A stretch of 64,000 nucleotides of DNA from a virus. Location: the IMG/VR virus record IMGVR_UViG_3300042569_003487, positions 32,001 to 96,000 of that record, one strand, 5' to 3'. Under the pieces are notes generated by a model. The model did not search any database, was not told the origin of the DNA, and saw only the letters and a list, made by a program, of their open reading frames with translations. The position numbers and the translations under genes were made by a program. This document shows positions 1 to 48,527 of this stretch, one piece after another. Position 1 is the stretch's first letter, and each line of letters begins with the position of its first letter.

Positions 1-271
1 CAATTTCTCCCAATAGCATGTTATGATTTTGTAGAATAACGAAAGCTTCGTTTGGTCCAGTAAATTCAACACTATTTTTTAAGAAATTTCTCAACCACTT
101 AAGATCATCTTGCGTCATAGATGGAACATCAAAATGACCACGACGTTGTGCTTTAAGACTTTCGATTTCTGATAATTCTTGTTGAGGTTCAGTTACCTCG
201 GTAGATTGATCCATAATCTGATCAACTTGTTCTAAAATTTGCTCTTCTTGAGTTACAGTTTCGTTTGACAT
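1..271 (-). CDS. Hypothetical protein, truncated by window start (MSNETVTQEEQILEQVDQ...)
   Basis: ATG at 271 and frame open to the window edge; AAC-N16-GTATAA element upstream at 297-321; absent from the ORF track because it is partial. Confidence 0.75.
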   Translation of the reverse strand, partial: MSNETVTQEEQILEQVDQIMDQSTEVTEPQQELSEIESLKAQRRGHFDVPSMTQDDLKWLRNFLKNSVEFTGPNEAFVILQNHNMLLGEI

Positions 272-296
272 AAATATCTTTGTTTTTGTTAAGATA

Positions 297-324
297 TTAT
301 ACCAAACTCTATTCGATAGTTTCA
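297..324 (-). promoter_or_regulatory. Putative ECF-type promoter TGAAAC-N16-GTATAA
   Basis: Minus strand reads TGAAAC TATCGAATAGAGTTTG GTATAA, 25 nt upstream of ATG 271; the same spacing recurs at four other sites. Confidence 0.6.
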
Positions 325-791
325 ATTAAACGTTGAGCAATTATCTGTTGAGATCTTGATAATTTTTCAACTGCTTCTTGGAATGGAATAAATCCAGCCC
401 AATCTACCTCCTCGGCTTGTAGTTGTTCTTTAGGTAATTTAGGCGAATCGAGGCCAATTTGTTCAAGACTCTCAATGTGTACCTCAAAATAAGCGCAGCG
501 ACTGTGAGGAATACCGCGACGGTAAAATACAAAATATTTCTCATTTTTATCAATTAGTTCTGGATCTACCGTAACCCCGGTCTCTTCTCTAGTTTCACGA
601 ATTGCGCAAGTTAAAAGATCTTCACCTAGTTCAATTCCTCCTTTAGGAATTCCAAAAGGTTGATTTTTCCAACTTGCATTTGATGGATGAATTAATAAAA
701 GCTTTCCTTCCCAGATAATAGCGAGGCCGGCTGCTCTAATTTCAAGCTGCTTTTCGCTTTCTGCTAAATAGTCTGTGAAGGTAAAAATCAT
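309..791 (-). CDS. NUDIX hydrolase
   Basis: Nudix box GGIELGEDLLTCAIRETREETGV (GX5EX7REUXEEXGU). Confidence 0.92.
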   Translation of the reverse strand: MIFTFTDYLAESEKQLEIRAAGLAIIWEGKLLLIHPSNASWKNQPFGIPKGGIELGEDLLTCAIRETREETGVTVDPELIDKNEKYFVFYRRGIPHSRCAYFEVHIESLEQIGLDSPKLPKEQLQAEEVDWAGFIPFQEAVEKLSRSQQIIAQRLIETIE

Positions 792-6821: not shown

Positions 6822-6847
6822 TTAATAGTAAGGCCATTTTTCTTTAT

Positions 6848-27729: not shown

Positions 27730-27759
27730 AAAAAAAGGGAACATAAAATATTCCCTTTT
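27730..27759 (-). terminator. Intrinsic terminator ending the fibre/lectin operon
   Basis: AAAAGGGAA...TTCCCTTTT inverted repeat with a T-run on the minus strand. Confidence 0.7.
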
Positions 27760-27779: not shown

Positions 27780-28130
27780 TTATGGTAATTCTGGTTCAGC
27801 TGGAGGCGTAACTGGAGTCGGTTCTGGTTGAACCCATTCAGTATCTCTAACCAATCCTGCTTTTGCTAATACTACATCAACAAATACCATATCATCAGTA
27901 CCCCAAGTGGCAGTATCTTCAGCTGTACAGTTAATGTGCTTAGACATAATTTGAACTGCTGCTGCAGCTGGTGCAGGTGCTCCTGGGTTAGGATCAGTTT
28001 CGTATAAATTAACCATAGCTGAAGCAATTCCGCTGGCTAAATCATAGTGCATTAAGTGAATTGTAGCAAATTCTGCAGTTTTGCCAAATCCGGTAATCGA
28101 TTCGATTTTTACTTTTAACATTGTGAACAA
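27780..28130 (-). CDS. Small fibre-associated protein (follows LamG cassette 2)
   Basis: 116 aa, Pro-rich tail; own late promoter at 28141-28147; start may be ATG 28121. Confidence 0.6.
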   Translation of the reverse strand: MFTMLKVKIESITGFGKTAEFATIHLMHYDLASGIASAMVNLYETDPNPGAPAPAAAAVQIMSKHINCTAEDTATWGTDDMVFVDVVLAKAGLVRDTEWVQPEPTPVTPPAEPELP

Positions 28131-28153
28131 TATTTTTTATTATTTATCTAGTA

Positions 28154-29281
28154 CTAAGATATGCCAAAACGGGTTTGGTACTTCTTGTAATTTTGACTAA
28201 CTTGAGGAGAGGTCATCCCAGTTGAATAAATTTTAGCAACTGCAATTTTTCCATTTAAAAAATATTGACCAGAGGAAGCCGCAGCATATGTACCTATTCT
28301 ATATGGAGTACTTATTGTTAAAGATGATGATCCAGTATTTCCAGAGCCCACCTCTATTCCATTTAAGTATAGTTTACAAGTAGATCCTATCCTAGTGCAA
28401 ATTAAATGATAATACCGTCCTACTTCAATTGATCGATAGCCGCTATTAACTTCAATATTACTATTTCCTCCAACTATTCTAATTTGGCTGCCATTATCAT
28501 CAAATAGTAGGTACATGGGCGAATTAGATTCTCCGCCATTTCCTCTTGGATCAATTAAATAGTGTCTTTTTCCTGGAAGAGCATCTGCGCTAAAAACTAC
28601 CTCCATTGCATAATCTCCCAATGAAAAGCTTTGATTTGGCGTAACTACCAATCGATCGTCAGTTCCATCAAATATAAGACCGGCGTTTGAACTAAAGGAC
28701 GCTAAATTATTAATAGAATTTTTACCTGTTAAATCTAAAATAGAAGTGGTGGCTGATCTTGACCCCTTTAAAAATTGGGTCGCATGAGAGTTTTCTTCAA
28801 TTTGTGGAGCCGCAATTTCAATAGTCCCAGCTTGGTTATATCGATATACTGTTACGGTTGAAATCGTGCCACCCATATCACCTCGAGTATAGGTATATCT
28901 CTGCCAATTTTGAGTAAGTGGGCCATCTCCAAAATAATACCAGCCTCCATCTGGACCAGTTCCAGTATAAACATACATTAAATACGTACTAGGCGTAGCT
29001 GATCTAGACCTCATCCATACTGAATAAGTAAATGTTCTACCGCTGGCCGAGGTTGGAGTTGTATCTCTTGGATTTACATAATAACCAGAACTATATTGCG
29101 CATATCCTATAACATTGGTACCAAATGGAACATCTGTACTTAAGACATTTGCGTTTCCATCTGGATCAACTACTAAGTTTGTGCTAGGTTCTCCTTTGTA
29201 TGAATTAACAATGTCACCGATGTCATAGGCAAAAATTAATCCATCGTGTATTGAAGCTCCATATCCTTGTTGTACTGCCAT
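28154..29281 (-). CDS. LamG/ConA-like lectin protein with inserted CBM-like domain (type C, copy 2)
   Basis: LIFAYD.GD..NSY, FDGTDD, LYLNG, GKIAVAKIY...V.QNY...RFG. Confidence 0.8.
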   Translation of the reverse strand: MAVQQGYGASIHDGLIFAYDIGDIVNSYKGEPSTNLVVDPDGNANVLSTDVPFGTNVIGYAQYSSGYYVNPRDTTPTSASGRTFTYSVWMRSRSATPSTYLMYVYTGTGPDGGWYYFGDGPLTQNWQRYTYTRGDMGGTISTVTVYRYNQAGTIEIAAPQIEENSHATQFLKGSRSATTSILDLTGKNSINNLASFSSNAGLIFDGTDDRLVVTPNQSFSLGDYAMEVVFSADALPGKRHYLIDPRGNGGESNSPMYLLFDDNGSQIRIVGGNSNIEVNSGYRSIEVGRYYHLICTRIGSTCKLYLNGIEVGSGNTGSSSLTISTPYRIGTYAAASSGQYFLNGKIAVAKIYSTGMTSPQVSQNYKKYQTRFGIS

Positions 29282-29286
29282 ATTGA

Positions 29287-31152
29287 TTAAGTCTTTTCTC
29301 TAAAATAAATTTCCAATGAATTTATTGGAAGTGGGCCATTACAACCGCCTCCAGGTAATACGTCAACTCCATATCTAAGATATGCATTATATGGCTGTGC
29401 GTAGTCTTGAGTCCAGCCGCTTCCGCCACACATTGCGTGTCCAGCATTAATAGTTGAATTACAGTCACAAGTATCATCATCCAATAAAAATGATTTAATT
29501 CCTTCTGATGTTCTATATTGCCAGCTGTCTTGGTCTCCTGTATAGATTCCACCGGATAATACCGTTGGATTAAATGCTCCACGTTCTGCCCAAGCTCCCT
29601 CAGTTCCGCTAAAAAATGAATCCCAAACTCGTTGTGAAGTTTCTGAAGCATTACTAAAATCCCATTTGTAAATATTACCCGCCCCATCCTTTGCTAATAT
29701 CTCAGTATTGGATTTAGTTAAATATTGAGGAAGCCTTTGAAAACCATAGTCTCCTCCCTGATTATGTGAACCAAACGAATAATCTAGTGCATGTAAACCA
29801 GAGGGCCAGCCCTTTCCATTATACCACCAAAATTTAGTCCAACCTCCTCCATCTGTTGTCATATCACAATATGCTAAGATTGGATTTGTTAATTGAGGAG
29901 GTTTTATCCAATAATAACCAGAAGTTGCTCCAGGTTTATGTTGTTTAATTTTCTTTGCGCTAAGTCCAGCTGTGGCTGAGCTATCTCCAAGTCCGCCTAT
30001 TCCAAACTTAGCTGAATTCATTCTGTAAATTTGTTTAATTTCGCTTTCACTAAGCGCTCTATTGTAAACTTGGGTCATAAGGATTTTTCCTCTATATAGC
30101 TCAGATGTTACTGTATTTGCACCTATTCTAAACGGAGTACTTCCATCTCCAACCGTTGCGGTAGCCGACCCAGTTTTTTTAAGCTCACCGTTAATATAAA
30201 ATGCAGTTGATTCACCAAGCCGACTTGCCGAAATCATAACTGGGCTAGTAGTAAATTCTGGCAGGGTTGTATTCCATGGAGAAGATCCTAAGTATGTACT
30301 AGAATTTCCAAGATGCATGCCAATATAGTTTGTTCCAAAAAATATTTGAAGATTACTCGATGGATAACTACCAAACGTTGTTCCTCCAGAGTTACTAGAA
30401 TTAGACTGTAATATTTGAACCACGGTAAAATCCCCAGCTCCTTGAATAACACCGCTTCCAACTCCTAAATAGTCGTCAGACCCATCAAATGTCATTTGGG
30501 CACTTTCGTCAAAAGATACAGTTGATAGATTTGGACTAACCTGTCCCACTATATCCTTTAGTCCTTGGGTAGAGGTTCTGGTTCCATTTGTATATGGTGT
30601 GACATGACTCTTTTCTTCGGCTTGCGCAAGCACAAAATACATTGGCCTATTTTGAGAAATATTTTCTGCTGCCCAATATGGATATAAACTATCAGTTTGA
30701 GAAGTTAATGTATAACTTATACGTTGCCAATTTCCAGTTAATGTTACAAATTGGCCTGGATTATATGTAATTGGCCCGTATCCACCCTGGTTATATTGAC
30801 CAAGTGTTCCTAATCCTTTTACGTATGCTGAAATTGTATAGGTTCGGCCGTTACTAAATTTTCCACCATTTCCTTGATGAAAGTGAGCATACGATGTATC
30901 AGAAGTTGTTCTTACCACCTTAAGCGCTGAAACTGGTACCCCAAACGGTCCAATAATAGTTTCAGTTGCGTAAGAATATCTGCCGCTGTCCCATGAACCA
31001 AAAATCCAATTCGCAGTACCTGAACTAAAATCAGAATTTGAAAAAAGGTTTACCGTAGGCTCTCCAATATAAGAATTTACCTGATCTTGCAAATCAAATG
31101 CAAAAACCATTCCGCTTTCTGAAAAAATATTTGGTCCTGCGTGAGTTGGCAT
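29287..31152 (-). CDS. LamG lectin protein with inserted domain and C-terminal fibrinogen-like domain (type B, copy 2)
   Basis: LamG motifs FDGSDD, FYING, VYNRALS; then SGYYWIKP...YCDMTTDGGGWT fibrinogen-C signature. Confidence 0.8.
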   Translation of the reverse strand: MPTHAGPNIFSESGMVFAFDLQDQVNSYIGEPTVNLFSNSDFSSGTANWIFGSWDSGRYSYATETIIGPFGVPVSALKVVRTTSDTSYAHFHQGNGGKFSNGRTYTISAYVKGLGTLGQYNQGGYGPITYNPGQFVTLTGNWQRISYTLTSQTDSLYPYWAAENISQNRPMYFVLAQAEEKSHVTPYTNGTRTSTQGLKDIVGQVSPNLSTVSFDESAQMTFDGSDDYLGVGSGVIQGAGDFTVVQILQSNSSNSGGTTFGSYPSSNLQIFFGTNYIGMHLGNSSTYLGSSPWNTTLPEFTTSPVMISASRLGESTAFYINGELKKTGSATATVGDGSTPFRIGANTVTSELYRGKILMTQVYNRALSESEIKQIYRMNSAKFGIGGLGDSSATAGLSAKKIKQHKPGATSGYYWIKPPQLTNPILAYCDMTTDGGGWTKFWWYNGKGWPSGLHALDYSFGSHNQGGDYGFQRLPQYLTKSNTEILAKDGAGNIYKWDFSNASETSQRVWDSFFSGTEGAWAERGAFNPTVLSGGIYTGDQDSWQYRTSEGIKSFLLDDDTCDCNSTINAGHAMCGGSGWTQDYAQPYNAYLRYGVDVLPGGGCNGPLPINSLEIYFREKT

Positions 31153-31154
31153 AA

Positions 31155-31865
31155 TTATAATCCAAATCTATTTTTATGTGCATTAAAATTTTGGAGGGCT
31201 TCCTCTGGCGTTAAATACTTTTTATACATTCTGGCCATGGCAATGCTACCATAAAACAAATATCCAACATTATTTGGATTATTTCCAATTTGCATAGACA
31301 TATTACTCCAAATAGTAGAACCGGACCACGCGCCTCCGCCATCTCCGGTTGTTTTTTGAACTCCATCTATATAGGTTGAAAATGTTGAACTATCTCTAGT
31401 GCATATAATATGATGCCAATTATCATCAAATAGATTTGTGCCATATACTACAGTATTATGTAAGTATGTGCCAGGATATCCATTGTCTGTATTGTAGATA
31501 TAGTAAACAAGTTCTCCGCCTGGTGCAATATAACTAATAATTCCATAGTCTGGGCAAAATAGGCCTCCGATAGATTGACCTGCACCTAGACCTGGAGATT
31601 TTATCCACAGTTCAAATGCATGAGTTGAAATACCACCGAATGAATTAACAGATGGAGTAAAAGCTATATCATCTGTTCCATCGAATCTAAATATTCCTAA
31701 ATTACTTGAGCTAAAGGTTGGAGAATTTGCAAGAGATGCATTTAGGCTTGGATTTGCCAGATTAGTCCACTCTGAGCCGGAACCAGTATATGAATTAGTG
31801 TCACCTGCGTCTAACGCAAGAACCAATTCATTTGTAATAATTTTAGGTGAGTGATGTAGAGCCAT
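31155..31865 (-). CDS. Short LamG lectin protein (type A, copy 2)
   Basis: LVLALDAGDTNSY.GSG, FDGTDD, WHHI, YIDG, QNFNA..RFGL. Confidence 0.85.
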   Translation of the reverse strand: MALHHSPKIITNELVLALDAGDTNSYTGSGSEWTNLANPSLNASLANSPTFSSSNLGIFRFDGTDDIAFTPSVNSFGGISTHAFELWIKSPGLGAGQSIGGLFCPDYGIISYIAPGGELVYYIYNTDNGYPGTYLHNTVVYGTNLFDDNWHHIICTRDSSTFSTYIDGVQKTTGDGGGAWSGSTIWSNMSMQIGNNPNNVGYLFYGSIAMARMYKKYLTPEEALQNFNAHKNRFGL

Positions 31866-31891
31866 ATAAGATATTTATTTGGCTCTTTACT

Positions 31892-32239
31892 TTAATCGGG
31901 TCGTCCTTCAGTAAATGGCTCTGTCCACTCTTCAGTTGAAAGAATTTCTAAGATTTCTTCGTGAGTATATTCAGTCATGCCCTCTTGCCAAATTGCAGGT
32001 CGACCGTATACTCCGGCTAGTGTGGTATGAGTTGTCTCTTCGCCAGTTTCTGCATTAATGTATTGAGACACAAGGTCCTCTTCTACAATCGTAATATCGT
32101 ATTTAATAAATGTTTTAGTACCATCAATTGAATAACGAAGAGTTTCAGCTGAGGTTTGGTGAACCTGACCAAAATCAATAGATTCTACATCAGTCGATGG
32201 AATAATTAACCATCTGCGGTTTGGAAATTGTGTGCTCAT
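31892..32239 (-). CDS. Small acidic fibre-associated protein (follows LamG cassette 1)
   Basis: 115 aa; TLRYSIDGTKTFIKY and YTHEEILEIL...EW motifs typical of small phage proteins next to lectin genes. Confidence 0.65.
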   Translation of the reverse strand: MSTQFPNRRWLIIPSTDVESIDFGQVHQTSAETLRYSIDGTKTFIKYDITIVEEDLVSQYINAETGEETTHTTLAGVYGRPAIWQEGMTEYTHEEILEILSTEEWTEPFTEGRPD

Positions 32240-32258
32240 ATAAGTTATTTATTAATTT

Positions 32259-33554
32259 TTACAAATTGAATCTGGTTTTATAGTGACGATAATTTTGCTC
32301 AATTTCAGAAGCAGTTAGTGCTCGGCTGTATATTTTAGCAATTGGCACTAAGCAAGGTAAGTGGGAATAGACTTGAGTTCCTCCGCCGTCTACCTGAGCT
32401 TTATTAATTCCAATATTACCAGCAGTTGGAGTTAATCCTGGATTATACTCTTGAGTGGCAGTACCTGCTGATCCATTTAAGGACCCATTTGCATAAAGTT
32501 TTATGGATCCGCTTGATGCGTCATTTACTAATACTAGATGGTGGTACCTGCCTGGAGTTAAGTCAAATGCGCCAGCTGTTCTATACGCGTCAGCTCCTCT
32601 AATATATGCATAAATTGTACATGCTGTTCCATCACTATTTCCATACCAATATAAAGCTGTTCCACTATAGTATGTAGCACCTACCAATACTCCAGCTTTA
32701 GTGGTGCTACCGTATCCATTAGGCGGAGCTGCTGCTGGGTATGCGTCAATCTTAACTGTACATTCTATAGTAAAATTTGAAAGAGCTGATAAAGTTGTTA
32801 ACGGGATCCCAGTATCAAGAGTATCGTCAGTTCCATCAAAAGTCATTTGACCAGTTGAATTAAATGATACAGTGGATAAATTCACTGTCCTATTTCCAGT
32901 TAAATCTAATAATCCCTGAGTTACACTTCGAGTTGTACCAAATGGGATAAATTGCCTAGGTCTCAAAACTTCTGGACCCTGAGTAAACATTACACCAGCA
33001 ATATCAATTGTATTATATGTTGCATACTCATACATATAAAAATAAAAATACATTGTAGTTGTTCCAGGCTGAGTTGTTAGATTTCCCCATGCATGATACC
33101 AACCATCTCCGAGGTGAGTGCGATTTCCATCATTGTGTAAACCGCCTTCTGTAATATAACCAGATGCACCATATTCATATCTGTACATAAAATTTGGATG
33201 AGTATAACCAGAAGAGCTTCTATAAATTATTGAATATGCATATTGAGTACTGCCAGAAACGCTGGATCCACCTAAACTCCAAGCCTGCTGACAGCAAACT
33301 CCAGAACCTCCTCCATAATCATTATATGTTTCGATTGTTTCAACTGTTCGTACGCCTAGGGTTGGAACAAAAACATCTCTTGAATAATATTGAGTTTTAA
33401 AAACTGAACTAGATTGATTACCATAAGTTCTACCATAAGAACTTAATAAATTGGTTTTTGGCGCACCCTTAAATGAGTTATCCATATCTCCGGTATCGTA
33501 ACTAAAAATTAGGTTATTAGTGGTTGTTTTTCCAAAGCCTTGTGCAATTGCCAT
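32259..33554 (-). CDS. LamG lectin protein with inserted domain (type C, copy 1)
   Basis: LIFSYDTGD..NS, FDGTDD, LYANG, KIYSRALTASEIEQNY...RFNL. Confidence 0.8.
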   Translation of the reverse strand: MAIAQGFGKTTTNNLIFSYDTGDMDNSFKGAPKTNLLSSYGRTYGNQSSSVFKTQYYSRDVFVPTLGVRTVETIETYNDYGGGSGVCCQQAWSLGGSSVSGSTQYAYSIIYRSSSGYTHPNFMYRYEYGASGYITEGGLHNDGNRTHLGDGWYHAWGNLTTQPGTTTMYFYFYMYEYATYNTIDIAGVMFTQGPEVLRPRQFIPFGTTRSVTQGLLDLTGNRTVNLSTVSFNSTGQMTFDGTDDTLDTGIPLTTLSALSNFTIECTVKIDAYPAAAPPNGYGSTTKAGVLVGATYYSGTALYWYGNSDGTACTIYAYIRGADAYRTAGAFDLTPGRYHHLVLVNDASSGSIKLYANGSLNGSAGTATQEYNPGLTPTAGNIGINKAQVDGGGTQVYSHLPCLVPIAKIYSRALTASEIEQNYRHYKTRFNL

Positions 33555-33555
33555 A

Positions 33556-34746
33556 TTACATATTAAATCTTGTTTTATATCCTAAGAAATTATTATAAAT
33601 TTCAGAAGGCAATAGCGGTCTATTATAAACTTTAGTAACTGGTATTTTTCCGTTTACTAATCTAGGATTTGCATTATTACCCTTTCCAACATATCTAATT
33701 TTAAGACCGGCATAATCACGATTCCATACTTGTGAAACATGATCACCGCCTTCCGCGATACCATTTAGATAAAATTGATATTTAGTTCCATCATTTGAGC
33801 AAGTTATTGTAACATGGTACCATCTATTAGGCTGTAGTGTAGTTGAGCCATATCTCCAATAGCCAGGTGAAACATTCCATAGAGCTAGTCTATTGTCCAA
33901 AACTGACCAATACCAACTATTATAGTCAATTCCCTCTGATCCGATAAAGTTTGCCGGAGAAGTTGTATTGTTATAACCACCTGCTACGCTATTATAGTAG
34001 ACAACTGATTCGACTGTCCACCCTCCAGTTGTTTTAAACGTAATATCTGAACCAAGTGAAAGAAAATCATCTGTGCCATCAAATACAATCTCTTGTGAAG
34101 AGTTAATAGTAACATTGGCTAAGTTAATTTGGTTAGCCCCTGTTAAATCCAGTAAGCCCTGGGTACTTGATCTAGAACTAGCGGTAAATCGGGTTGCATG
34201 GTCTTTCTTTTCTAATTGCGGATTGTACATATAAAGTACAAAATCAACATCCTGTGGATCTCCGCCGCCTCTGGCAAACCAATAAAAATAGAATGGAACT
34301 GAACTTGAAGTATTTGTTACACTTGCTTCAAGCTTTTGCCATGTACCAACTCGGCTAAGATCATAGTAAGCATTTTCTCCGCCTGATCCTCCGTGAGTTG
34401 CATTAACATTTGGAGTCCATGCAAATTTACCATTGGGTTCAATATAGAGTTCGCAAGATCTGGTAAAAATATCACCAACTGCACCAACTGCAGAAATTCC
34501 AGAATAGGCTCCAGTCCAGTTAGGATTATTGCCTGGGCTAAAAACATGGCATCGCAAACACGTGCGTCCTTGGAACTCGACGACTGATGTCGTAACCCAA
34601 CTCCAACCATATCCAGAAAAAGTTACTGGATTACTTGTTTCTAAATTGGTAGTAGGTTCGCCGATATACGAATTTATAATATCCCCGGTATCGTATCCAA
34701 AGATAAGACCAGATTCTGATTTATTTGGCCCTGTACTATTTGCCAT
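33556..34746 (-). CDS. LamG lectin protein with inserted domain (type B, copy 1)
   Basis: LIFGYDTGD..NSY.GEPT, FDGTDD, WYHV, FYLNG, VYNRPL. Confidence 0.8.
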   Translation of the reverse strand: MANSTGPNKSESGLIFGYDTGDIINSYIGEPTTNLETSNPVTFSGYGWSWVTTSVVEFQGRTCLRCHVFSPGNNPNWTGAYSGISAVGAVGDIFTRSCELYIEPNGKFAWTPNVNATHGGSGGENAYYDLSRVGTWQKLEASVTNTSSSVPFYFYWFARGGGDPQDVDFVLYMYNPQLEKKDHATRFTASSRSSTQGLLDLTGANQINLANVTINSSQEIVFDGTDDFLSLGSDITFKTTGGWTVESVVYYNSVAGGYNNTTSPANFIGSEGIDYNSWYWSVLDNRLALWNVSPGYWRYGSTTLQPNRWYHVTITCSNDGTKYQFYLNGIAEGGDHVSQVWNRDYAGLKIRYVGKGNNANPRLVNGKIPVTKVYNRPLLPSEIYNNFLGYKTRFNM

Positions 34747-34873
34747 TTTCTTCGATCCATTTTTCGCAGTCTTCTTGACTTAGAAAACACGCAAGCGGAG
34801 TTAGGTCAATTGCATCTTTAAATATGCAAAACTGACTTGGTAAATCTTTATACTTAATTTCTTTAATTACCAT
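34736..34873 (-). CDS. Small hypothetical protein (45 aa)
   Basis: ATG 34873 sits immediately after the upstream stop and the ORF fills the gap between two LamG genes; the longer ORF-track start overlaps another gene. Confidence 0.5.
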   Translation of the reverse strand: MVIKEIKYKDLPSQFCIFKDAIDLTPLACFLSQEDCEKWIEENGK

Positions 34874-34874
34874 A

Positions 34875-35570
34875 TTATGATAAGCCATCATTTTGTAAGC
34901 CAGTTCGACTTGAAAGAGCCTGATAATTTTTAAGAATTTCAGAGTTTGAGAGAGGCCGATTATAAATCTTAACATTTTTGATTTTACCATTAAGATTAAA
35001 ATATCCACCTGCATAGGTTTCACGACCGATCATTGTATTACCGGCATCGCTTGTAAGAGGGCGATCATTTTGGCTACCAGTATAATCACCGCCGGTTTGA
35101 ACCCCATTAACAAAGAAATTGTTAACGCCCCTAGACCTTCTCCAAGTTACATAATACCATATACCAGTATTAAAGGTATAGGGCACAGATATGTATGGCC
35201 GCCTCATTTCAATAGAAGCATTATTTTGATTTATCGCAAATGCCCAATGTTCAACATTCCAGTTACCAGACGAAACTAGAGTTCCATGATAATTATCATG
35301 ATTGCCTCTTACTGAAAAAAGAACTTCCATTGTAAGATCATCTAAATCAGTAAAATTTCGTTCAACATTAATATAAGAGCCATAATCTGGCTCAAAATTG
35401 AAAACCTTACCATTCAGATAAGATTCACTCATATTAGAAGATAACGTATAACCATTTAGGGAAAGATCGTAAACGGTTTGGCCAGATCCTGGATAACAGC
35501 TAGGATCCGCTGCTTCGACATAAAGTTGAAGTCCGCTTAATTCAATTCTTGGATTATAGTGTAGTGCCAT
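34875..35570 (-). CDS. Short LamG lectin protein (type A, copy 1)
   Basis: LQLYVEAAD.SCYPGSG..VYDLS, WYYV, FVNG, KIYNRPLS..EI..NY. Confidence 0.85.
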   Translation of the reverse strand: MALHYNPRIELSGLQLYVEAADPSCYPGSGQTVYDLSLNGYTLSSNMSESYLNGKVFNFEPDYGSYINVERNFTDLDDLTMEVLFSVRGNHDNYHGTLVSSGNWNVEHWAFAINQNNASIEMRRPYISVPYTFNTGIWYYVTWRRSRGVNNFFVNGVQTGGDYTGSQNDRPLTSDAGNTMIGRETYAGGYFNLNGKIKNVKIYNRPLSNSEILKNYQALSSRTGLQNDGLS

Positions 35571-35824
35571 TATGCTTGAGTTGCTGCTGCATTTTTTGCC
35601 TTATTATGAAATATTTGAGCATAGAACGCAAAATTATGGGTGATAAGACCAAATTCAGGCGAGCCTATATGAATAGCCCCTTCTTCGCGTTCACAAATAA
35701 AGAATATAGTTGAATTTACATCAATAATTCCTACAACTTTCATTCTTGAATTTGCTCCAATATTATAATAAGTGTCTAACTCATAGACAGCTTCTTCGAT
35801 TTGATATGATTGTAAATTTTGCAT
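35570..35824 (-). CDS. Hypothetical protein
   Basis: 84 aa ORF translationally coupled on both sides. Confidence 0.6.
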   Translation of the reverse strand: MQNLQSYQIEEAVYELDTYYNIGANSRMKVVGIIDVNSTIFFICEREEGAIHIGSPEFGLITHNFAFYAQIFHNKAKNAAATQA

Positions 35825-35825
35825 A

Positions 35826-37145
35826 TTATACGATTCCTTCTTTTCTATTATGTGATACTACATCTTCAATTACATAAGTATGTGCTTGATCAACTTCAAT
35901 TTGAATAACCGGTAATTCTCCAAGTTCCTCAATTGATTCAATTTCCGCAATACCATCTATAGTTTGTACTTTTGCACCAACCCATAGTTCTGATAAGGCT
36001 ACAAATCCCATACTTTCAGTTAAAAATTTGTGATTACTTGATACCTTTAAAGTTTTTCCACCAATTACAGTTTGACTTACAATATTGGTTGCAGGGTTTG
36101 CTAGGGTCACCTGGTATGATCCCCATTCACCAGTATGCTCGTGTTTAGTGTAAACATAATCTCCAACTTTAAGATCTCCTGCCATCACCCAAGTGTTAGG
36201 GGCAATTAGGATTGGCATATCTGGGGTTGGACAGACTCCAGATCCACACACCTCGTTAAGGTTACCATATCCACCATATGCGATTTCAAATCCACAGAAA
36301 AGATATTCTCCCCAGCAACAAGCCCAACCTTCAACTCGGTTATTATTACAATCAGTACCTTGCCACCAACCGCTTCCATCTGAATAAAAGCTATAACAGT
36401 CTTCGGCTGGAGGAACATATCCGCATGATGCAGAATTACTCTCAATTAAAGTCGAATAGGTTCCATTACAGCCATCTGAATAAGTATAATAAAGATTGTA
36501 ACCTGAACAATATTGACTTAGGTATGTTCCGTATGATGGAGAACAACAACAGCCTCCGCATGCAGTGGTACAACCTTGGTTTGTATCGTAAGTTCCGCAG
36601 CTACCGTTTGCATATCGATAATAAAGAATACAGCCTGAACAGTATTGACTTAAGTAAGTTCCATAGGCTGGACAGCCGGCTCCAGTAGTTATACTAAGTT
36701 GATTTGAATATCCAGAATAACCATTAGTTGAAGTACAAGTTATACGTACTCTTATTAAATATGTTGTACTTGCAGAAAGTCCGCTAATTGTTTTGGTTCC
36801 TTCGCAGCCTCCAGTATTGTTACTCCAGCTGCTACCTCCATTTGAGCTATATTCAACGTGCATTGCTGTACAATTTGAATAACTTACATTAATTGTAATT
36901 GAACTTGATGTACTTGAATTACTTGAAATACTTGGTGCATTACAACAGGCAAATGTATGGTTATAACCTCGCCACTCAGACATTGCCGCAGAATTGGCTG
37001 AACTAGGTCTACTTGGCGAGCAACTGTTAATTGCAACATATCCGCCATCCTCAGCTGATCCTAAACTAATTGGCGCTGCTGCGTTTCTTCCTAACTCAGA
37101 ATTAATCTGACTCATTCGGATTGCACCGCTGCTCGGTAATGCCAT
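35826..37145 (-). CDS. Putative fibre-tip adhesin: FN3-like + Cys-rich repeats + C-terminal Hint (intein-like) domain
   Basis: MALPSSGAI.MSQINSELG N-terminus; FN3-like (ISGLSASTTYLIRVR); Hint motifs C-PTPDMPI, DLKVGD, SSNHKF, HTY...VSHN. Confidence 0.75.
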   Translation of the reverse strand: MALPSSGAIRMSQINSELGRNAAAPISLGSAEDGGYVAINSCSPSRPSSANSAAMSEWRGYNHTFACCNAPSISSNSSTSSSITINVSYSNCTAMHVEYSSNGGSSWSNNTGGCEGTKTISGLSASTTYLIRVRITCTSTNGYSGYSNQLSITTGAGCPAYGTYLSQYCSGCILYYRYANGSCGTYDTNQGCTTACGGCCCSPSYGTYLSQYCSGYNLYYTYSDGCNGTYSTLIESNSASCGYVPPAEDCYSFYSDGSGWWQGTDCNNNRVEGWACCWGEYLFCGFEIAYGGYGNLNEVCGSGVCPTPDMPILIAPNTWVMAGDLKVGDYVYTKHEHTGEWGSYQVTLANPATNIVSQTVIGGKTLKVSSNHKFLTESMGFVALSELWVGAKVQTIDGIAEIESIEELGELPVIQIEVDQAHTYVIEDVVSHNRKEGIV

Positions 37146-37146
37146 A

Positions 37147-40100
37147 TTATGCTCCTCTTAATTTTTTAACTTCTGCTTTAAGCTCTTCAATTTGTACTTG
37201 TTGAGCTTTAATAGATTCAATAAGTAGGGAGACTGTGTTTCCGTAAGAAACTGAAAGCTCACCATTTGCATTTTCAGATACGGCTTCAGGCAGGGCTTCT
37301 CGCATTTCCTGTGCAATAACTCCAGTATATCTTTTAGTAGGATCGGCTAAGTCTGTACGTGTAAATGTTACACCTCTAACTTTGCTAAGTCTTTCCAATG
37401 GATTATCAATTACCTCTATATTTGCTTTTACCCTAGCATCCGAATACGCAATAATATCGCCAATACACCAAATTGTATCTGAAATTGCAGTCCAAGTTCT
37501 ACCTACATTTTGTACTAACATACCATGGTTAGTTAAGTTGGCAGCTTCTCCGCCAGCATTTGGGTGGGACCATGCTATACCGTAATGATTGGCACAACTT
37601 GTACCGTCAGCCGCTAGCTTATAGGCATCGCCCATCGCAAATACACCTTGGAATCTCGTTGAAGTATAAACTCCAACTACAGTATTACCATAGTTATCAT
37701 CGATATAAAAGTTACCATTTGCTCGGGTTGCTCGAGCTGCAGTAATTGACCAAGAACCCGATGCAACTCCACGAATAATATCGGCTGCAACCGTTGTTGT
37801 TGCAGATCTATGATAGCTATCACCATTTTTAATTACAAATCGAGTTATTCCACTTTCATCATTATCAGTTGTGTTAATATATTGGAATCTTCCATAACCG
37901 CCGGCTGGATAAATTTCAGCCGTACCTGATGAAGAGTATACGCTATTTCCGCTATGCCATAGAATTGGGTACCATGAGCCTGAACCATTTCCTGAGTTAA
38001 CGGTTACAGTTGATGCAATTGTTGCAGAACTCGCTGAACTTGCAGAACTTGCTGAACCAGCTGAGTCTGCATATGCAACCTGAACTCCACTTGGGTGGTT
38101 TGATGTTAATTGCCAGTAAGATCCTGTCCAGTTAGCTCTAACATAATAGTCAGTAGGGTGAGATTCTGCCCATAATTTAAGAGCACCGTCTGCTCGGCTA
38201 ACCGTTTGCGATCCAATATTACCTGAGTGAATCATTTCGACCCAACTTCTAGGCGTATCCCAAGCACTTCTCCAAAACCATCTGTTATTTGCCTCTTGTG
38301 AACAAACCATTTGCCAACCATGGAATCTAGAACCATCCGAATTGTTATAATGGAATGCTTGCATTCCAACATAATGAGAAGAGGCACCAGGACCATTAGC
38401 GGGTGTTGACCAGGTATCAAAAAACCCAGACCCCCAATAAGAACCTATAGTATTAAGATCATATTGACCCCAACCCATTGCTCCTGTTTGATAAAGAGCT
38501 CCTTGTGCTGCTCTAGTACTCCATGGAGAATTGCTCTGTTTAGAGTTTAAACTATGTCTGTTTAGAGTAGCATCACCAAATCTATAAAGATTAGATGTAC
38601 CATTAGGATCTAAATAATAACCAGTATCATCTGAATCGTAGAATATTGGAGATCGCATTGAACCTGCTGCTTCCATATAAACGTCTGAATAAACTCGACC
38701 GTCTTCGATTAAAAGTCTACGGTTACCGCCTCTCATAATACTTACGTTATGGCCAGTATAACTACCAATATAAACCTGATCTGGCGTATGCACATAAATT
38801 CCAGCTTGAATACCTGGAGTCCTCGCCTCTACTACAAATCGGGTATGCGGTGCATTACTAAACCATACTTGGGTACCCCATCCCCCTGGATCTGACCAGT
38901 TACTTCCAGAATCTCCAACATAAAGATTTCGGATTCGGGATGATCCGGCTGGATCTAGGTAAAATGCACTATTGTCATTATCATAAAATGCTGCAGCATA
39001 CATGCCGGCACCAGTTATCCAGTTTCCACTATCATCACACCAACTACCCCAACTACCACTTTGATTTAAGAATCCAATTCGGTTAGAGTTACAATGAATT
39101 TCGCGAGTTCCTTCATCTGAATCGTGCATAAAGATTGATGAAGCACCTACTCCCTGCCCAACCGTAAGATTTCCATAAAGAGTAGTACTTCTGGCACTGT
39201 CTGTTAACAGCGACCAGTTTCCAGCATTATTCAAGAATCCAATATTATTAGAAGTATCAGCATAAACATATCCGCGAATAGTGCTTTGGTGATTACTTCT
39301 AAACACAAGTTCAACTACTCCGCCACTACCGGTAACTGTCCATCCAGATCCATTGCTTGAATAGAAATGAGTTCCGGTTGCCTGGTTGTATACACCTTCA
39401 TTTGTATTATAATTTCTAAACCATCCATAATTGTATACATTGGTAAAGGTAACTGCGTCTGATGTTCTAACATATTGATTCATATTGGAAGGATACGGAT
39501 CGGCTGATGTATTTAACGCTCTAAACCAGCCAGACCAGTCGTCAGCGCCTCTCCTAAAATATAAGTTGTCATAGGCGTATGGAATATAAATTTGAGCGCC
39601 TCTAGTTCTATTACCAATACCCCAAAGACTTGCATTATATGCAGCATCAGGGCCACCGTAACCGTTTATTGGGCCATATCCATCTAAGTTAACGGTGTAT
39701 TGTCCATCTAGGTCATTTAAGTTACCAACATTAACTTGATAACCAAGATTTCTTGTATATCGGCCATCTGCTGTTGCTTGTGACATACCTCCGCTTGGAA
39801 TAGTTACAGAGTTACCGCCGCTAATCGTAAGCGTAGATCCGTTGATACTTAAGGTTTGTCCATCGCTATTAGTATCTGTATCAATATCATTAAATGCTGC
39901 AGTTAAAGTTGAGCCATCACCTAAAGTTAAGGTTAAAGTTTTGGTTGAACTTCCACTAAATGCAACTCCAGTTGGGCGTTTATTATATGCAGTATTCCAG
40001 TTTGAAGCTGAGCTAATATATGAATCGCTAATTGCAGTACCATTCCAAACTGCGTTAGATAAAGTAGCGCCGCCCCAGCTCATATTTCCAATAATAGAAA

Positions 40101-41901
40101 ATGCACTACCATTCCACATGATTCTTCCTTGATAATCAGTTGCGCTATTTACAAAATCAATATAGGCGCCGGCCGTTCCGTATAATTGCAATTGAGCATA
40201 ACCATCTGCTAAATTGAATCCCATACCAGGATTAGTTAAGTTATATCTAGATGAAGAGGTGCTTCTGTCACCTACATAAAATGGAAATTTAGCATCAACT
40301 GAATCGCTATTAATTGCTATTTTACTATCTGAAATTGTTATTGAATTTGCACCATATTTACCAATTTTAACTGTGCTATTTGCTAGCACTTCAATAATAG
40401 GTAAACCTGCAATAGTATTAACACTATAAATGGTGTCTAACACTGAATCAGTTACGGTAAATAATCGACCATTAACCCCGTCTACTGCTAGGACATCGGC
40501 TCCATCGGTTGAACCCTTTACATATACAGTCGCGGAAGGCAATGAATATGCATAATTGGCAACCCCAACTGCTAATCTATTTTCAAGATTTAAGTAACTA
40601 GTTATAGCAGATGTACCTGAATGCCATCTACCTAATCGATATACGCTAGCTCCTCCAGCAGATGCGGTAAATGTGATACCTCTAACATTAGAACCTCCAC
40701 TTTGCATAGTATTAATTAATAAATCATGGTGGCCGCTTACTGCACTAGTATACCATTGAGTATTACCGGCTCCAATCCAAAAATCCTGATGTCCTTGAAA
40801 ATGGACATTTGTAATTGTACCGTTTTGACCGTTTAGGGAACCACTATCCCAACCTGAACTTGCTCCAAAATAAGAATATCTTCCATTTACATAAATTTCA
40901 CCAAATGTTGGGTTTGCTCCAGTTTGAACGCTTTGGTTTAACCAACTAGAAAGCCAAGTACTTCTAGTTCCTAAATATAAATCGCCGCTTGCTCCAAAAT
41001 TACCGTTTGTCCATAATCCAGAGTTTGCTTGGTATAAGTAATATGATGTTTGACCCGATGGATAAATTCCGCCTGTCATTATTAAATTTCCGCCGTTATC
41101 TACATCAAGAATATTTGTTCCGTCTGATCTTCTAAAAAAGAAGTTTCCCCCGCCTCTATTTTGAAAATATAGATGGCTTGAGTGCCACTGTATTTTATTT
41201 TGTTCACCTGTCCAAGCTCCATGCGTTCCAACATATGCAGCACCTGCATCTAATGTAAGGCTACCTGACATTGAGTCTCCTGATGCATTTACAAATCTTG
41301 AATCAGATTCAGATTCAGTATAATATCTGTCATCATGACTATGGCTAATTGCAGCAAATCTTGAATCAGATTCCGATTCAGTATAGTATCGGTCATCGTG
41401 ATTATGTGAAGGAAGAGCTGTTAAGTAGCTTTGAGAAGTTACCCAGCTGCGAAGAGCTAGCGGTTCATTATCTACTGCAAATAGACCATCTGCTCGAACT
41501 CCAAATCGTTGAACGTGTCGATTTCCCCAATGAAATGTAATTGCAGGGGCATAGTTCCAATCACTTTGGTTAGATCCAACATATCCTTGTTCACGGATTT
41601 GAATCGCACCTTCATATACTCCAGTTCCAATAGAAGGTATGTAGAGTTGGCCAGTCATTGTACCACCAGATAGGGACAGTTTTCCAGCTAGAGAGTTTGT
41701 TAGTGTACTAGCAAAACTTGCATCATCTCCTAATGCAGCAGCCAATTCATCAAGGGTATTTAAAGCACCAGGTGCACCTGCAATTAAGTTATTAATTTGC
41801 GTAGTAACATAAGAGGTTGTTGCAATTGAGTGGTCTGCCATGTTACCGGCATGAATTGCAATATGTCCATTGATTGTGGTTCCGTGTATTAATTGTGCCA
41901 T
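37147..41901 (-). CDS. Long tail fibre with C-terminal peptidase S74 chaperone
   Basis: APGALNTLDELAAALGDD N-terminal motif; G/S/N/W-rich shaft; YSDARVK...GVIAQE...VSYG...coiled coil. Confidence 0.9.
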   Translation of the reverse strand: MAQLIHGTTINGHIAIHAGNMADHSIATTSYVTTQINNLIAGAPGALNTLDELAAALGDDASFASTLTNSLAGKLSLSGGTMTGQLYIPSIGTGVYEGAIQIREQGYVGSNQSDWNYAPAITFHWGNRHVQRFGVRADGLFAVDNEPLALRSWVTSQSYLTALPSHNHDDRYYTESESDSRFAAISHSHDDRYYTESESDSRFVNASGDSMSGSLTLDAGAAYVGTHGAWTGEQNKIQWHSSHLYFQNRGGGNFFFRRSDGTNILDVDNGGNLIMTGGIYPSGQTSYYLYQANSGLWTNGNFGASGDLYLGTRSTWLSSWLNQSVQTGANPTFGEIYVNGRYSYFGASSGWDSGSLNGQNGTITNVHFQGHQDFWIGAGNTQWYTSAVSGHHDLLINTMQSGGSNVRGITFTASAGGASVYRLGRWHSGTSAITSYLNLENRLAVGVANYAYSLPSATVYVKGSTDGADVLAVDGVNGRLFTVTDSVLDTIYSVNTIAGLPIIEVLANSTVKIGKYGANSITISDSKIAINSDSVDAKFPFYVGDRSTSSSRYNLTNPGMGFNLADGYAQLQLYGTAGAYIDFVNSATDYQGRIMWNGSAFSIIGNMSWGGATLSNAVWNGTAISDSYISSASNWNTAYNKRPTGVAFSGSSTKTLTLTLGDGSTLTAAFNDIDTDTNSDGQTLSINGSTLTISGGNSVTIPSGGMSQATADGRYTRNLGYQVNVGNLNDLDGQYTVNLDGYGPINGYGGPDAAYNASLWGIGNRTRGAQIYIPYAYDNLYFRRGADDWSGWFRALNTSADPYPSNMNQYVRTSDAVTFTNVYNYGWFRNYNTNEGVYNQATGTHFYSSNGSGWTVTGSGGVVELVFRSNHQSTIRGYVYADTSNNIGFLNNAGNWSLLTDSARSTTLYGNLTVGQGVGASSIFMHDSDEGTREIHCNSNRIGFLNQSGSWGSWCDDSGNWITGAGMYAAAFYDNDNSAFYLDPAGSSRIRNLYVGDSGSNWSDPGGWGTQVWFSNAPHTRFVVEARTPGIQAGIYVHTPDQVYIGSYTGHNVSIMRGGNRRLLIEDGRVYSDVYMEAAGSMRSPIFYDSDDTGYYLDPNGTSNLYRFGDATLNRHSLNSKQSNSPWSTRAAQGALYQTGAMGWGQYDLNTIGSYWGSGFFDTWSTPANGPGASSHYVGMQAFHYNNSDGSRFHGWQMVCSQEANNRWFWRSAWDTPRSWVEMIHSGNIGSQTVSRADGALKLWAESHPTDYYVRANWTGSYWQLTSNHPSGVQVAYADSAGSASSASSASSATIASTVTVNSGNGSGSWYPILWHSGNSVYSSSGTAEIYPAGGYGRFQYINTTDNDESGITRFVIKNGDSYHRSATTTVAADIIRGVASGSWSITAARATRANGNFYIDDNYGNTVVGVYTSTRFQGVFAMGDAYKLAADGTSCANHYGIAWSHPNAGGEAANLTNHGMLVQNVGRTWTAISDTIWCIGDIIAYSDARVKANIEVIDNPLERLSKVRGVTFTRTDLADPTKRYTGVIAQEMREALPEAVSENANGELSVSYGNTVSLLIESIKAQQVQIEELKAEVKKLRGA
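41292..41405 (-). repeat. Tandem H.HDDRYYTESESDSRF repeat (2 copies)
   Basis: Direct repeat visible in both the protein and the DNA. Confidence 0.85.
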
Positions 41902-48098: not shown

Positions 48099-48527
48099 TT
48101 ATTTATTCATGTCTATCTCAATTTGCAATGGTTTAACATCTTTACGTTCAGCCTGAACTAAATAAAAGAATTGTGGTTTATGAGAGCCTGCTACTTCAAA
48201 ATAAGTATCAGTAATTGCCTTAATCCAAAGCGATTGAGATTTACCGAATGGTGTAATTGTAACTGTTATTGAGTCCTTATTTGCTAGGCTTGCCCAATAT
48301 TCTGGAAAAAAGATACGTTTTTCTTCACTTTTACCTCTAACATAGATTCCATGTTCAGGTCCCTCTAAGTTACCGTGAGCAAGCTTAAATCCTGGCTTAG
48401 TTGGATGATCGATTAAGAACTGCTTAGTTACAGCTGAAAAATTTCCATTATGATTAATATCTCCGGAAGATTCATTGTACGTCATGTGCGCACTAATATT
48501 AACTTGCTTTAATTTAACTTGAGCCAT
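48099..48527 (-). CDS. Small protein consisting mainly of the K.F.IDHP...EGPE fibre C-terminal-type domain
   Basis: KQFLIDHPTKPGFKLAHGNLEGPEHGIYVRG...P.YW..L...VQAERKD. Confidence 0.65.
   Translation of the reverse strand: MAQVKLKQVNISAHMTYNESSGDINHNGNFSAVTKQFLIDHPTKPGFKLAHGNLEGPEHGIYVRGKSEEKRIFFPEYWASLANKDSITVTITPFGKSQSLWIKAITDTYFEVAGSHKPQFFYLVQAERKDVKPLQIEIDMNK

Follow-up and report, generated by a model that had tools for sequence, protein, structure and literature searches.

What the six LamG genes of this locus encode, and why they come in two sets of three, is the question addressed here. In the window, i.e., the whole 64,000-nt stretch of DNA that was analyzed, ORF calling placed all six on the minus strand in the order A-B-C, A-B-C, and no further copy of the family was found in the whole 141,925-bp record. 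An earlier note had read them as swappable receptor-binding proteins assembled into A/B/C heterotrimers. We consider it probable (roughly 0.6) that they represent a three-slot lectin module, widespread among aquatic tailed phages, in two sets that encode accessory host-recognition subunits. Most likely, A, B, and C would be glycan-binding subunits carried on the fiber apparatus; a short N-terminal tag would direct each subunit to one of three non-equivalent docking sites, and lectin domains would be swapped horizontally between slots and phages, thereby retargeting the virus.

Two ordered trios of LamG proteins

The first trio comprises A1 (34875-35570, 231 aa), in which the tag MALHYNPRI is followed by a plain LamG domain, B1 (33556-34746, 396 aa), and C1 (32259-33554, 431 aa), a mosaic protein with the tag MAIAQGFGK. 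The gap between A1 and B1 is filled by a 51-codon ORF on the same strand (34736-34891), which overlaps both genes, A1 at its end and B1 at its start, and is conserved in a relative, L007. The second trio comprises A2 (31155-31865, 236 aa; tag MALHHSPKI), B2 (29287-31152, 621 aa; tag MPTHAGPNI), and C2 (28154-29281, 375 aa; tag MAVQQGYGA). All six proteins pass the Pfam gathering cut-off of 27.6 bits (whole-protein score) for Laminin_G_3 (PF13385), which Pfam places in the concanavalin A-like lectin/glucanase superfamily, with 49.7 (A1), 47.4, 42.2, 60.5 (A2), 40.6, and 74.2 bits. Because no sugar-binding residues were identified in these proteins, LamG denotes a fold here and not a function.

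In the B and C proteins, a beta-sandwich of ~150 aa interrupts the LamG jelly-roll after its first strand. B1, the only one of the six that was folded, illustrates this layout: residues 1-10 form the tag, residues ~12-30 the first LamG strand, and residues ~37-185 the inserted beta-sandwich (nt 34192-34638), followed by the remainder of LamG and a C-terminal helix. The AF2 model (pLDDT 79.6 overall, ~51 at residues 1-10) consists of two beta-sandwiches and one short C-terminal helix, with residues ~12-30 and 186-389 forming one LamG domain around the insertion, and the tag is unstructured in this monomer model. Single LamG domains of ~200 aa align with the model over the range 10..389 (~188 residues, Z 18-19), e.g., domain 4 of AbnA (5hon_A; Z 18.0, rmsd 2.9, 188/206 residues aligned, range 10..388), so that B1 is predicted to have a jelly-roll beta-sandwich fold. 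The tailspike of the cyanopodophage Pan3 (PDB 9vyh chain p, 269 residues) has the same jelly-roll (Z 16.2, rmsd 3.5, 207 residues aligned), a likeness at the level of the fold that bacterial CBMs and toxin binding domains equal or exceed.

The inserts of B1, C1, and C2 have no Pfam match, and the CBM-like insert of B2 stays below the threshold of CBM_4_9 (PF02018; 23.1 vs. 25.9 bits), its resemblance being that of a beta-sandwich only. Beyond its LamG domain, B2 ends in a fibrinogen-C-like domain (nt 29287-29997), which reaches 24.4 bits against Fibrinogen_C (PF00147, cut-off 22) over profile positions 11-46 of 221 only. At other loci, fibrinogen-like domains homologous to this C-terminus are carried by proteins of slots A and C.

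Slot tags and exchange of LamG cores

The trio and a small partner protein, s1, recur together in the cultured Flavobacterium phage immuto and across dozens of divergent phage contigs from IMG/VR, and the A-B-C order with its class-specific tags recurs in the loci found through B and C proteins. The claim of the earlier note that the triplets are ordered, and would be syntenic in relatives, is thus borne out as a conserved rule across divergent phages, with one locus (L022) in the order B-A-C. In a reciprocal test, complete (untruncated) clusters were picked through s1 alone among the matches listed; exactly three family genes and one s1 were present in 41 of these 53 clusters and six genes in 3/53, counts that are not fully independent because many of the compared loci come from related phages. 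The number differs from three in 8/53, and arrays of four or five also exist. Taken together, the module reads as three paralogues in fixed order plus one s1 of ~110 aa within a late tail-fiber operon, situated almost always directly behind a long fiber gene, which is the upstream neighbor of the trio in nearly all loci. Among cultured phages, the closest carrier is a Flavobacterium myophage; immuto has one canonical copy in genes 218-223, with the trio in gp219-221 and s1 in gp222, the latter 68% identical to s1 of the window and the lectins ~30%. In immuto and S-PM2, relatives bear the annotation "structural protein", a label for which no proteomics source was traced.

When gene order alone was used to define the slots, identity over residues 2-10 was 51% among proteins of one slot and 19% among those of different slots. 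These residues predicted the slot in other phages for 73/75 proteins, and the LamG core for just 58/82. A second cassette type, of the order F-s1-F-F, has its own three tags, from which the slot was predicted for 37 of 42 proteins, and the slot A tag is kept even where LamG is replaced by a fibrinogen-like domain. By these comparisons, it is the tag of ~10 residues that marks the place in the trio, and the LamG cores do not. The position-specific N-termini described in the earlier note are present as quoted, and order and tags recur across many divergent phages. Its broader statements need narrowing: the paralogues pair by position in their first ~10 residues and in architecture, but not over their full length (B1-B2 126, B1-C1 122, C1-C2 117 bits), and the conserved N-terminal segment is slot-specific for those ~10 residues, whereas residues ~12-30 are mostly the first strand of the LamG fold. 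Neither a lack of positional pairing nor a loss of gene order in relatives, the two sequence outcomes that the note had named as counting against it, was found when both were examined.

LamG cores have demonstrably been exchanged between slots and between phages, to judge from cross-slot sister pairs with good support in the LamG tree and from segment mosaics. The LamG of C1 has 79% identity with a non-C protein of L024 and 76% with the C protein of the second trio in L007; the inserted domain of C2 shares 77% identity with its counterpart in a slot-B-like protein of L024; and the fibrinogen-like part of B2 is 65% identical to C-terminal domains of slot-C proteins in L032 and L027. A1 is 86% identical to the A protein of L007, and the LamG of A2 is 60% identical to that of an L028 A protein and has no similarity to A1 detectable by segment BLAST. 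Replacement extends even to near-identical relatives: for L007 and L023, flanking genes are 83-91% identical and second-trio lectins 28-35%. The binding domains are swappable, as the earlier note had supposed, and swapped binding domains behind conserved tags are what a host-recognition kit should look like.

The same data bear on the origin of the second trio. Order, tag classes, and architecture are alike in the two trios, as they would be if the second were a recent tandem duplicate of the first and the paralogues redundant. However, the paralogues are 21-30% identical, no DNA repeat longer than 29 nt is common to both trios, each domain is nearer to domains of other phages than to its own paralogue, and L007 also has the double arrangement with different lectin domains. 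We therefore rejected recent duplication, which has almost no probability left.

Small partner, fibers, and the proposed assembly of the trio

The module partner s1 (31892-32239, minus strand, 115 aa) is far more conserved than the lectins, at 45-83% compared with ~30%. It is present in 65 ORFs of the LamG-selected loci, and its relatives are encoded in at least 547 IMG/VR stretches; among metagenome clusters, a word-based search that took up to 8000 candidates gave at least 7995 that match s1. Subfamilies of s1 track the cassette types, and a short s1 goes with all-short trios. The protein is a compact domain free of repeats, with no match in Pfam, PHROG, or PDB sequences; its model is confident and has no known fold, Foldseek returning nothing at E ≤ 0.001 and the best VIA comparison, with RRM-like folds, reaching Z 3.8. 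The s1 domain is also fused to a fiber C-terminus (P0121) and to LamG proteins (P0122-P0124); there are only a few such fusions, and one group of them belongs to a secreted LamG array of cellular origin (L171). The earlier note had each triplet trailed by a small gene of ~115 aa, which holds for s1 but not for s2 (27780-28130, minus strand, probably starting at the ATG at 28121): s2, with its Pro/Ala-rich tail, has no detected similarity to s1 and is a lineage-specific protein confined to close relatives.

Two long tail fibers lie upstream of the lectins on the minus strand, as the earlier note had stated: fiber 1 (41907-48077, 2056 aa), which matches BppL_N and PHROG tail-fiber families, and fiber 2 (37147-41901, 1584 aa), assigned by PHROG and Pfam. 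Each has a C-terminal Peptidase_S74 chaperone domain (PF13884; 43.6 and 47.1 bits, cut-off 22), and because this domain is self-cleaving, both are complete fibers by themselves. Between fiber 2 and the first trio, p439 and p84 (35570-37145, minus strand) occur only in the close relatives L007 and L023; p439 is Cys-rich and has a Hint-like domain at its end. On the far side of fiber 1, p142 (48099-48527, minus strand) is a free-standing homologue of a C-terminal domain of ~130 aa that ends long fibers elsewhere. It has no match in Pfam or PDB, and jackhmmer aligned it at full length to fiber C-termini in L009, L019, L020, L034, L054, L087-L092, and others. In many other phages, the p142-like domain terminates the fiber directly preceding the trio, which makes p142 a candidate docking platform.

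How the three lectins would be put together is less clear than what they are. One possibility, which we regard as tentative, is an A:B:C lectin head, with or without s1, at the fiber tips, in which tags set the positions and each position is re-equipped independently by recombination. The ratio of three genes to one s1 fits an A/B/C heterotrimer and the docking of tags on s1 or on a fiber-tip domain equally.

The earlier proposal is the stricter form, in which A, B, and C associate 1:1:1 through their N-terminal peptides and cap the tip of each long fiber, so that the two fibers would match the two trios. Three distinct conserved tags, two S74 fibers beside two trios in the window, and exactly three tightly packed genes in fixed order are all compatible with it, the last with equimolar subunits. 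Yet LamG domains are normally monomeric modules, and no trimerizing element (triple beta-helix, coiled coil, collagen repeat, or beta-prism) was found in the LamG alignments or the B1 model. Since LamG cores cross slots freely, specificity would have to come from ~9 residues that bind generic surfaces; both trios bear the same tag classes, so that tags cannot assign a trio to a particular fiber; the S74 fibers are complete without a cap; and s1, the best-conserved component, is left without a role. On balance, a strict heterotrimer is rather doubtful.

A hub would give s1 such a role: one copy of s1, or a p142-like fiber-tip domain, would offer three pockets, one for each tag, to form A:B:C:s1 on the fiber tip. 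The 3:1 gene ratio, the high conservation of s1, the match of its subfamilies to cassette types, its fusions to a fiber and to LamG proteins, and the p142-like fiber ends all point this way. Against this, s1 is small, its fold gives no hint of peptide-binding grooves and finds no PDB match, the window encodes a single s1 alongside its two trios, fusions are scarce and partly cellular, and s1 might just as well be an assembly chaperone that is not retained in the virion. A hub thus stays a tentative idea, slightly ahead of the strict heterotrimer.

Alternatively, A, B, and C may be separate receptor-binding proteins, as monomers or homo-oligomers, at different baseplate or fiber sites, the trio being an old and stable operon. 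In branched tailspike sets such as those of CBA120 and G7C, separate receptor-binding proteins each have a class-specific N-terminal anchor, clusters with 1, 2, 4, or 5 members occur, and the B-A-C locus also speaks for independence. But three members are strongly preferred over very divergent loci and two cassette types, a tag of ~9 residues is short for an independent virion anchor, and the constant pairing with one s1 would go unexplained; we regard independent adhesins as unlikely. Much less probable still is a string of LamG proteins along a separate rope peptide. Chain-like fibers exist in the podophages GP4 and A1002, where subunits dock by beta-strand augmentation (PMC13730344). In such fibers (GP4, VP1, A1002), many copies of one bead dimer sit on a rope protein whose docking segments are repeated, whereas the beads here would be three different proteins, and there is no repeat-bearing rope candidate among the small cassette proteins, s1 being compact and p84 and s2 lineage-specific.

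The three-slot lectin module would belong to a known kind, modular phage receptor-binding proteins, and what appears new from the gene comparisons is the fixed three-slot order, the slot tags of ~10 residues, and the dedicated s1; no published description of such a module was found in the literature searched. As in CBA120 and G7C, attachment would depend on a conserved N-terminal part while the variable distal domains pass horizontally between phages, genes for several different binding proteins adjoin one another behind the fiber genes, and the region is the hypervariable spot between close relatives. Unlike in those systems, the class-specific part is a stretch of only ~10 residues rather than a folded anchor domain, LamG jelly-rolls (a normally monomeric fold) take the place of trimeric spikes as binding units, and number, order, and partner are fixed. 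In phages of the T2/T6/S16 type, the gp38 adhesin is a separately encoded, non-trimeric protein on the tip of the trimeric long tail fiber, and small tail-fiber assembly proteins are encoded just downstream of fiber genes. The module resembles this system in its non-trimeric, separately encoded binding proteins (placement on the fiber tip being our proposal), in the small gene directly downstream of the binding genes, and in a gene order that mirrors assembly order. It differs in having three different proposed caps instead of one, and neither s1 nor the LamG proteins were found to be similar to gp38, gp57A, or Tfa, with s1 searched by sequence and fold (Pfam, PHROG, PDB, and fold searches).

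Complement C1q offers another parallel: its A, B, and C chains, encoded by three tandem genes, assemble into a heterotrimeric head of jelly-rolls in which each chain has ligand preferences of its own. Both have three paralogous lectin-like jelly-roll heads from tandem genes and a proposed combinatorial recognition; C1q, however, trimerizes through its collagen stalk and the head itself, whereas no collagen or other trimerizing segment is present here, where the heterotrimer is a proposal. If the hetero-oligomeric head exists, it would resemble C1q as a combinatorial device for glycan recognition, common among aquatic phages and undescribed so far. The umbrella toxin particle of Streptomyces docks diversified lectins on a common scaffold (PMC13274773). 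The likeness is one of principle only, in that diversified lectin subunits on one scaffold set target specificity; the proteins are unrelated, and the particle is a bacterial toxin, not a virion.

If confirmed, the three-slot module would mean that large aquatic phages, many of which apparently infect Bacteroidota, retarget themselves by fitting exchangeable sugar-binding domains into three fixed slots, and it would give a role to s1, an abundant family of small "hypothetical" proteins. No module component currently bears an informative annotation, and a simple rule could be applied: the first ten residues give the slot and the remainder the specificity. Since immuto carries the module, location, stoichiometry, and sugar binding are directly testable in a cultured phage.

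Putative transcription signals of the fiber and lectin genes

The motif ATAAATA stands directly upstream of s1 (32246-32252), A2 (31872-31878), and s2 (28141-28147) and also precedes fiber 1 (48100-48106); none was found before A1. The earlier note had given both small genes and the second trio late promoters of their own, and the motifs agree with this. Overall, the motif is scarcer than chance would give (24 copies; ~40 expected), yet most copies stand directly before gene starts and on the coding strand. This is the pattern of T4-type late promoters, (T)ATAAATA directly upstream of late genes, and we regard the motifs as putative promoters. Conservation of the tags, which are very short, could serve a role other than docking, e.g., in translation initiation on leaderless late mRNAs, given that only 6 nt separate the promoter-like motif from the ATG. 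At the other end, a GGGAA/TTCCC hairpin followed by a T-run (27730-27755, minus strand), read from the sequence, is likely the terminator of the fiber/lectin operon.

The lectin operon and its six LamG proteins

The two lectin trios lie among the late structural genes of a contractile-tailed phage, including a large terminase, a baseplate wedge protein and fibres, and the window corresponds to bases 32001-96000 of a 141,925-bp IMG/VR virus record with a CheckV completeness of 55%. On the minus strand, the operon runs in the order p142 (48099-48527), fibre 1 (41907-48077; 2056 aa), fibre 2 (37147-41901; 1584 aa), p439 (35826-37145), p84, A1, a 51-codon ORF (34736-34891), B1, C1, the small gene s1, A2, B2, C2 and a second small gene, s2, with a likely hairpin terminator at its end. 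Both fibres end in a Peptidase_S74 intramolecular chaperone domain. The cysteine-rich p439, located between fibre 2 and the first trio, has a Hint/intein-like C-terminal domain (weak PT-HINT match, 23.1 bits) and is kept in the relative loci L007 and L023. The 51-codon ORF, which L007 also has (9874 onward), occupies the A1-B1 gap, overlapping the end of A1 and, with its stop codon, the first codons of B1. The late promoters that the earlier note assigned to the small genes and the second trio stand as a motif observation because ATAAATA sits directly before many gene starts, among them those of s1, A2, s2 and fibre 1; the motif is rarer in the window than expected by chance (24 copies versus ~40). 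No isolated phage matched the 9.4-kb region in a megablast search, and tblastn of B1 against isolated phages gave matches only in the cultured Flavobacterium phage immuto and in S-PM2, confined to the LamG half.

All six trio proteins score above the Pfam Laminin_G_3 threshold, as the earlier note had recognized, its quoted N-termini read identically, and there is no seventh LamG copy in the 141,925-bp record. A1 and A2 consist of a tag (the first ~10 residues) and a LamG domain. B1, B2, C1 and C2 carry ~150 extra residues after the common segment LIFxYDxGDxxNSYxGEPTTNL, and B2 is extended C-terminally by a further 236 residues that match Fibrinogen_C weakly. The paralogues had been said to pair by their position in the trio (the slot); this holds for the N-termini as quoted and not over the whole length, where B is not separable from C (B1-B2, 126 bits; B1-C1, 122; C1-C2, 117; B2-C2, 117). 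PDB sequence searches with the lectins returned generic LamG/CBM40 matches only.

Structure models cover B1 and s1 only. The AlphaFold2 model of B1, built from 64 homologues, has a pLDDT of 79.6 and a pTM of 0.82, with a confident strand at residues 14-19 and a pLDDT of ~51 at residues 1-10. Single LamG/ConA-like domains of ~200 residues align to it at Z 18-19 (~188 residues) across the model range 10-389, and therefore the first strand and residues ~186-389 of the model constitute one jelly-roll, within which residues ~37-185 form an inserted domain. Since the first strand belongs to the jelly-roll, the conserved N-terminal segment described earlier is, in this model, mostly the first LamG strand, and what is extra is the ~10 residues preceding it.

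A conserved module of three tagged lectins and a small gene

The trio and s1 form a conserved 3+1 module. An IMG/VR scan with a B/C alignment yielded 77 loci, nearly all with tandem arrays by the family HMM. The recurring unit comprises a short protein starting M-[AG]-L-x-[YH]-[GN]-P-x-I, a long one starting M-P-[TS]-x-x-G-P-N and another long one starting M-A-[VI]-x-x-G-[YF]-[GS]-K, followed by an s1 homologue (65 ORFs across the 77 loci). The predicted synteny of the A-B-C unit was thus recovered in the IMG/VR loci and also in immuto, which has the canonical set of a fibre (gp218), gp219 with the A tag, gp220 with the B tag on a short protein lacking the insert, gp221 with the C tag, gp222 (68% identical to s1) and a second fibre (gp223). 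In the literature searched, no proteomics origin was found for the “structural protein” label of gp219/220. In the reciprocal direction, 80 loci were chosen through s1 alone, and 41 of the 53 clusters uncut by contig ends contain exactly three family genes (F) with one s1, arranged as F-F-F-s1 or F-s1-F-F, while six family genes occur in three clusters and counts that are not a multiple of three in eight; related phages are among the compared loci, and these counts overstate independence.

Variants of the module were also observed. Apparent B-C pairs in some loci are really trios, in which the slot-A protein joins an A tag to a fibrinogen-like or other domain replacing LamG. A family of 70-74 aa (...KPMKL...YFDGWExQL...NIVEVERFI) always follows slot-A proteins with the fibrinogen-like replacement (L088:4347-4568, L089:3411-3632, L116:6788-7000 and L156:4336-4551, plus others) and may serve specifically as the partner of this domain. 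All-short LamG trios (~230 aa), sometimes two or three consecutive, occur in the IMG/VR loci L071, L072, L058, L065 and L081 and accompany a shorter s1 subfamily (85-95 aa) without the central hairpin. In Synechococcus phage S-SKS1, a 960-aa protein (L085:6091-8973, SWZG_00005) starts with an A-type tag and has three more LamG domains nested in an outer LamG; the C-terminal helix of the outer LamG forms the end of the protein. The 960-aa protein is followed by an s1-like gene and preceded by two two-LamG proteins, which gives this siphophage, too, a set of three lectin genes with s1.

Slot identity is carried by ~10 N-terminal residues. After dereplication of the loci at 90% s1 identity, residues 2-10 in 25 F-F-F-s1 loci, with slots assigned from gene order alone, are 51% identical within a slot versus 19% between slots, and a nearest-neighbour rule on these residues, own locus excluded, is correct for 73 of 75 proteins. 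The 14 F-s1-F-F loci have three tags of their own (MGIxRGPNI, MATxxGPN and MYTGPK), from which the slot is correct for 37/42. The rule is valid in both cassette types, across lectins just 25-30% identical. Slot-specific C-terminal tails were rejected as a general feature, the tails in the second type giving 15/42, about chance. An alternative reading is that tag conservation serves translation initiation on leaderless late mRNAs: exactly 6 nt separate ATAAATA (32246-32252 and 31872-31878) from the start codons of s1 and A2, whose mRNAs would be almost without a leader if transcription begins a few bases downstream of the motif. However, this reading leaves three distinct peptide classes unexplained.

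Exchange of the binding domains

The binding domains are freely exchanged among slots. As a slot predictor, the LamG core is right for 58 of 82 proteins; restricted to B and C, it is right for 39 of 57. A maximum-likelihood tree built from the 82 cores (quick search, SH-aLRT support only) mixes B with C proteins, and its starred cross-slot sister pairs include L011_C+L028_B, L023_C+L037_B, L048_C+L054_B, L013_C+L017_B and L034_A+L049_B. The earlier note anticipated A-A, B-B and C-C pairing for the terminal regions; in this core tree the window paralogues never pair together. A2 falls with the L028 and L077 A proteins, and C1 with the C protein of the second L007 trio. The closest matches of four window segments elsewhere are a non-C protein of L024 for the C1 LamG (79%), a B-like protein of L024 for the C2 insert (77%), a short A-type protein of L008 for the B1 LamG (56%), and domains that slot-C proteins carry in L032 and L027 for the B2 fibrinogen-like domain (65%).

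Relative to the window, L007 has flanking genes 83-91% identical and A1 and B1 at 86%, with C1 a hybrid and A2, B2 and C2 just 28-35% identical. In L023, all six lectins are at most 33% identical and the flanks 82-91%. No long DNA repeat is common to the paralogues. Given the low lectin identity in relatives and the lack of such a repeat, recent duplication of the first trio is rejected as the source of the second, as is gene conversion between the trios; the sole shared DNA is a 23-nt motif encoding FDGTDD. These comparisons mark the lectin domains as the replaceable part, as expected of host-range determinants.

Possible docking sites, the small partner and the fibres

Phage receptor-binding proteins are well known to combine a conserved N-terminal anchor with a distal binding domain that can be exchanged. 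The trio module differs in its fixed number of three, its very short slot tags, its LamG units and its dedicated small partner. The trio proteins would be mounted on the fibre apparatus, with their tags as docking elements and glycans as ligands, and the non-equivalence of the three tags suggests that the sites, too, are three and non-equivalent. These could lie on one another, as in the heterotrimeric cap proposed earlier, but the trio proteins have no trimerising element, their LamG cores are interchangeable between slots, the same tag classes occur on both trios, and the S74 fibres are complete by themselves. The LamG fold, moreover, is normally monomeric. Alternatively, s1 or a fibre-tip domain could provide the three sites. 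Chain-like “bead on rope” fibres are another known way to mount small beta-sandwich subunits (PMC13730344); no rope candidate is present at the window's trios. We found no description of the trio in the literature searched, where “heterotrimeric” in the context of phage tails refers to baseplate wedges, and the three-slot trio with s1 is apparently undescribed there.

A long fibre gene lies upstream of the trio in nearly all loci, and many of these fibres end in a ~130-residue domain homologous to p142, a domain that is therefore a candidate docking platform. The p142 protein is a free-standing copy of this fibre C-terminal domain (ending ...AERKD...) and has no Pfam match; in the window it is separate from the fibres, which end in S74 chaperones instead.

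The small gene after each triplet had been presented as a paired feature, but s1 and s2 have no similarity, and s2, like p84, is confined to the close relatives L007, L023 and L055. The s1 model is confident (pLDDT 89.5). Foldseek gave no match in the PDB, the best hit of a wide VIA search (Z 3.8) was not credible, and the BFVD fold search retrieved only uncharacterised small viral proteins. Neither s1 nor p142 has a PDB sequence match, a protein-atlas search added no information on either, and s1 belongs to no Pfam or PHROG family. In metagenomes s1 is very common (at least 7995 matching clusters, all unnamed). Prophage or cellular copies were discounted, with just 9 matches, each on a MAG contig, in a search of 185,579 species genomes; this scarcity fits lytic phages, and the four Bacteroidota among the nine fit the proposed host phylum weakly.

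Fusions of s1 occur in P0121, a 764-aa fibre-like protein with an s1 domain at its end, and in three clusters, P0122-P0124, where s1 is combined with LamG and Ig-like domains; these three belong to a cellular array from a Flavobacterium MAG whose LamG proteins are secreted. This array (L171:503-14240, Flavobacterium sp. MAG contig) encodes five LamG/Ig-like proteins with signal peptides, and the one at 5564-7249 has a complete s1 domain at its end; with such a domain in a secreted bacterial protein, part of the phage module seems to have been captured.
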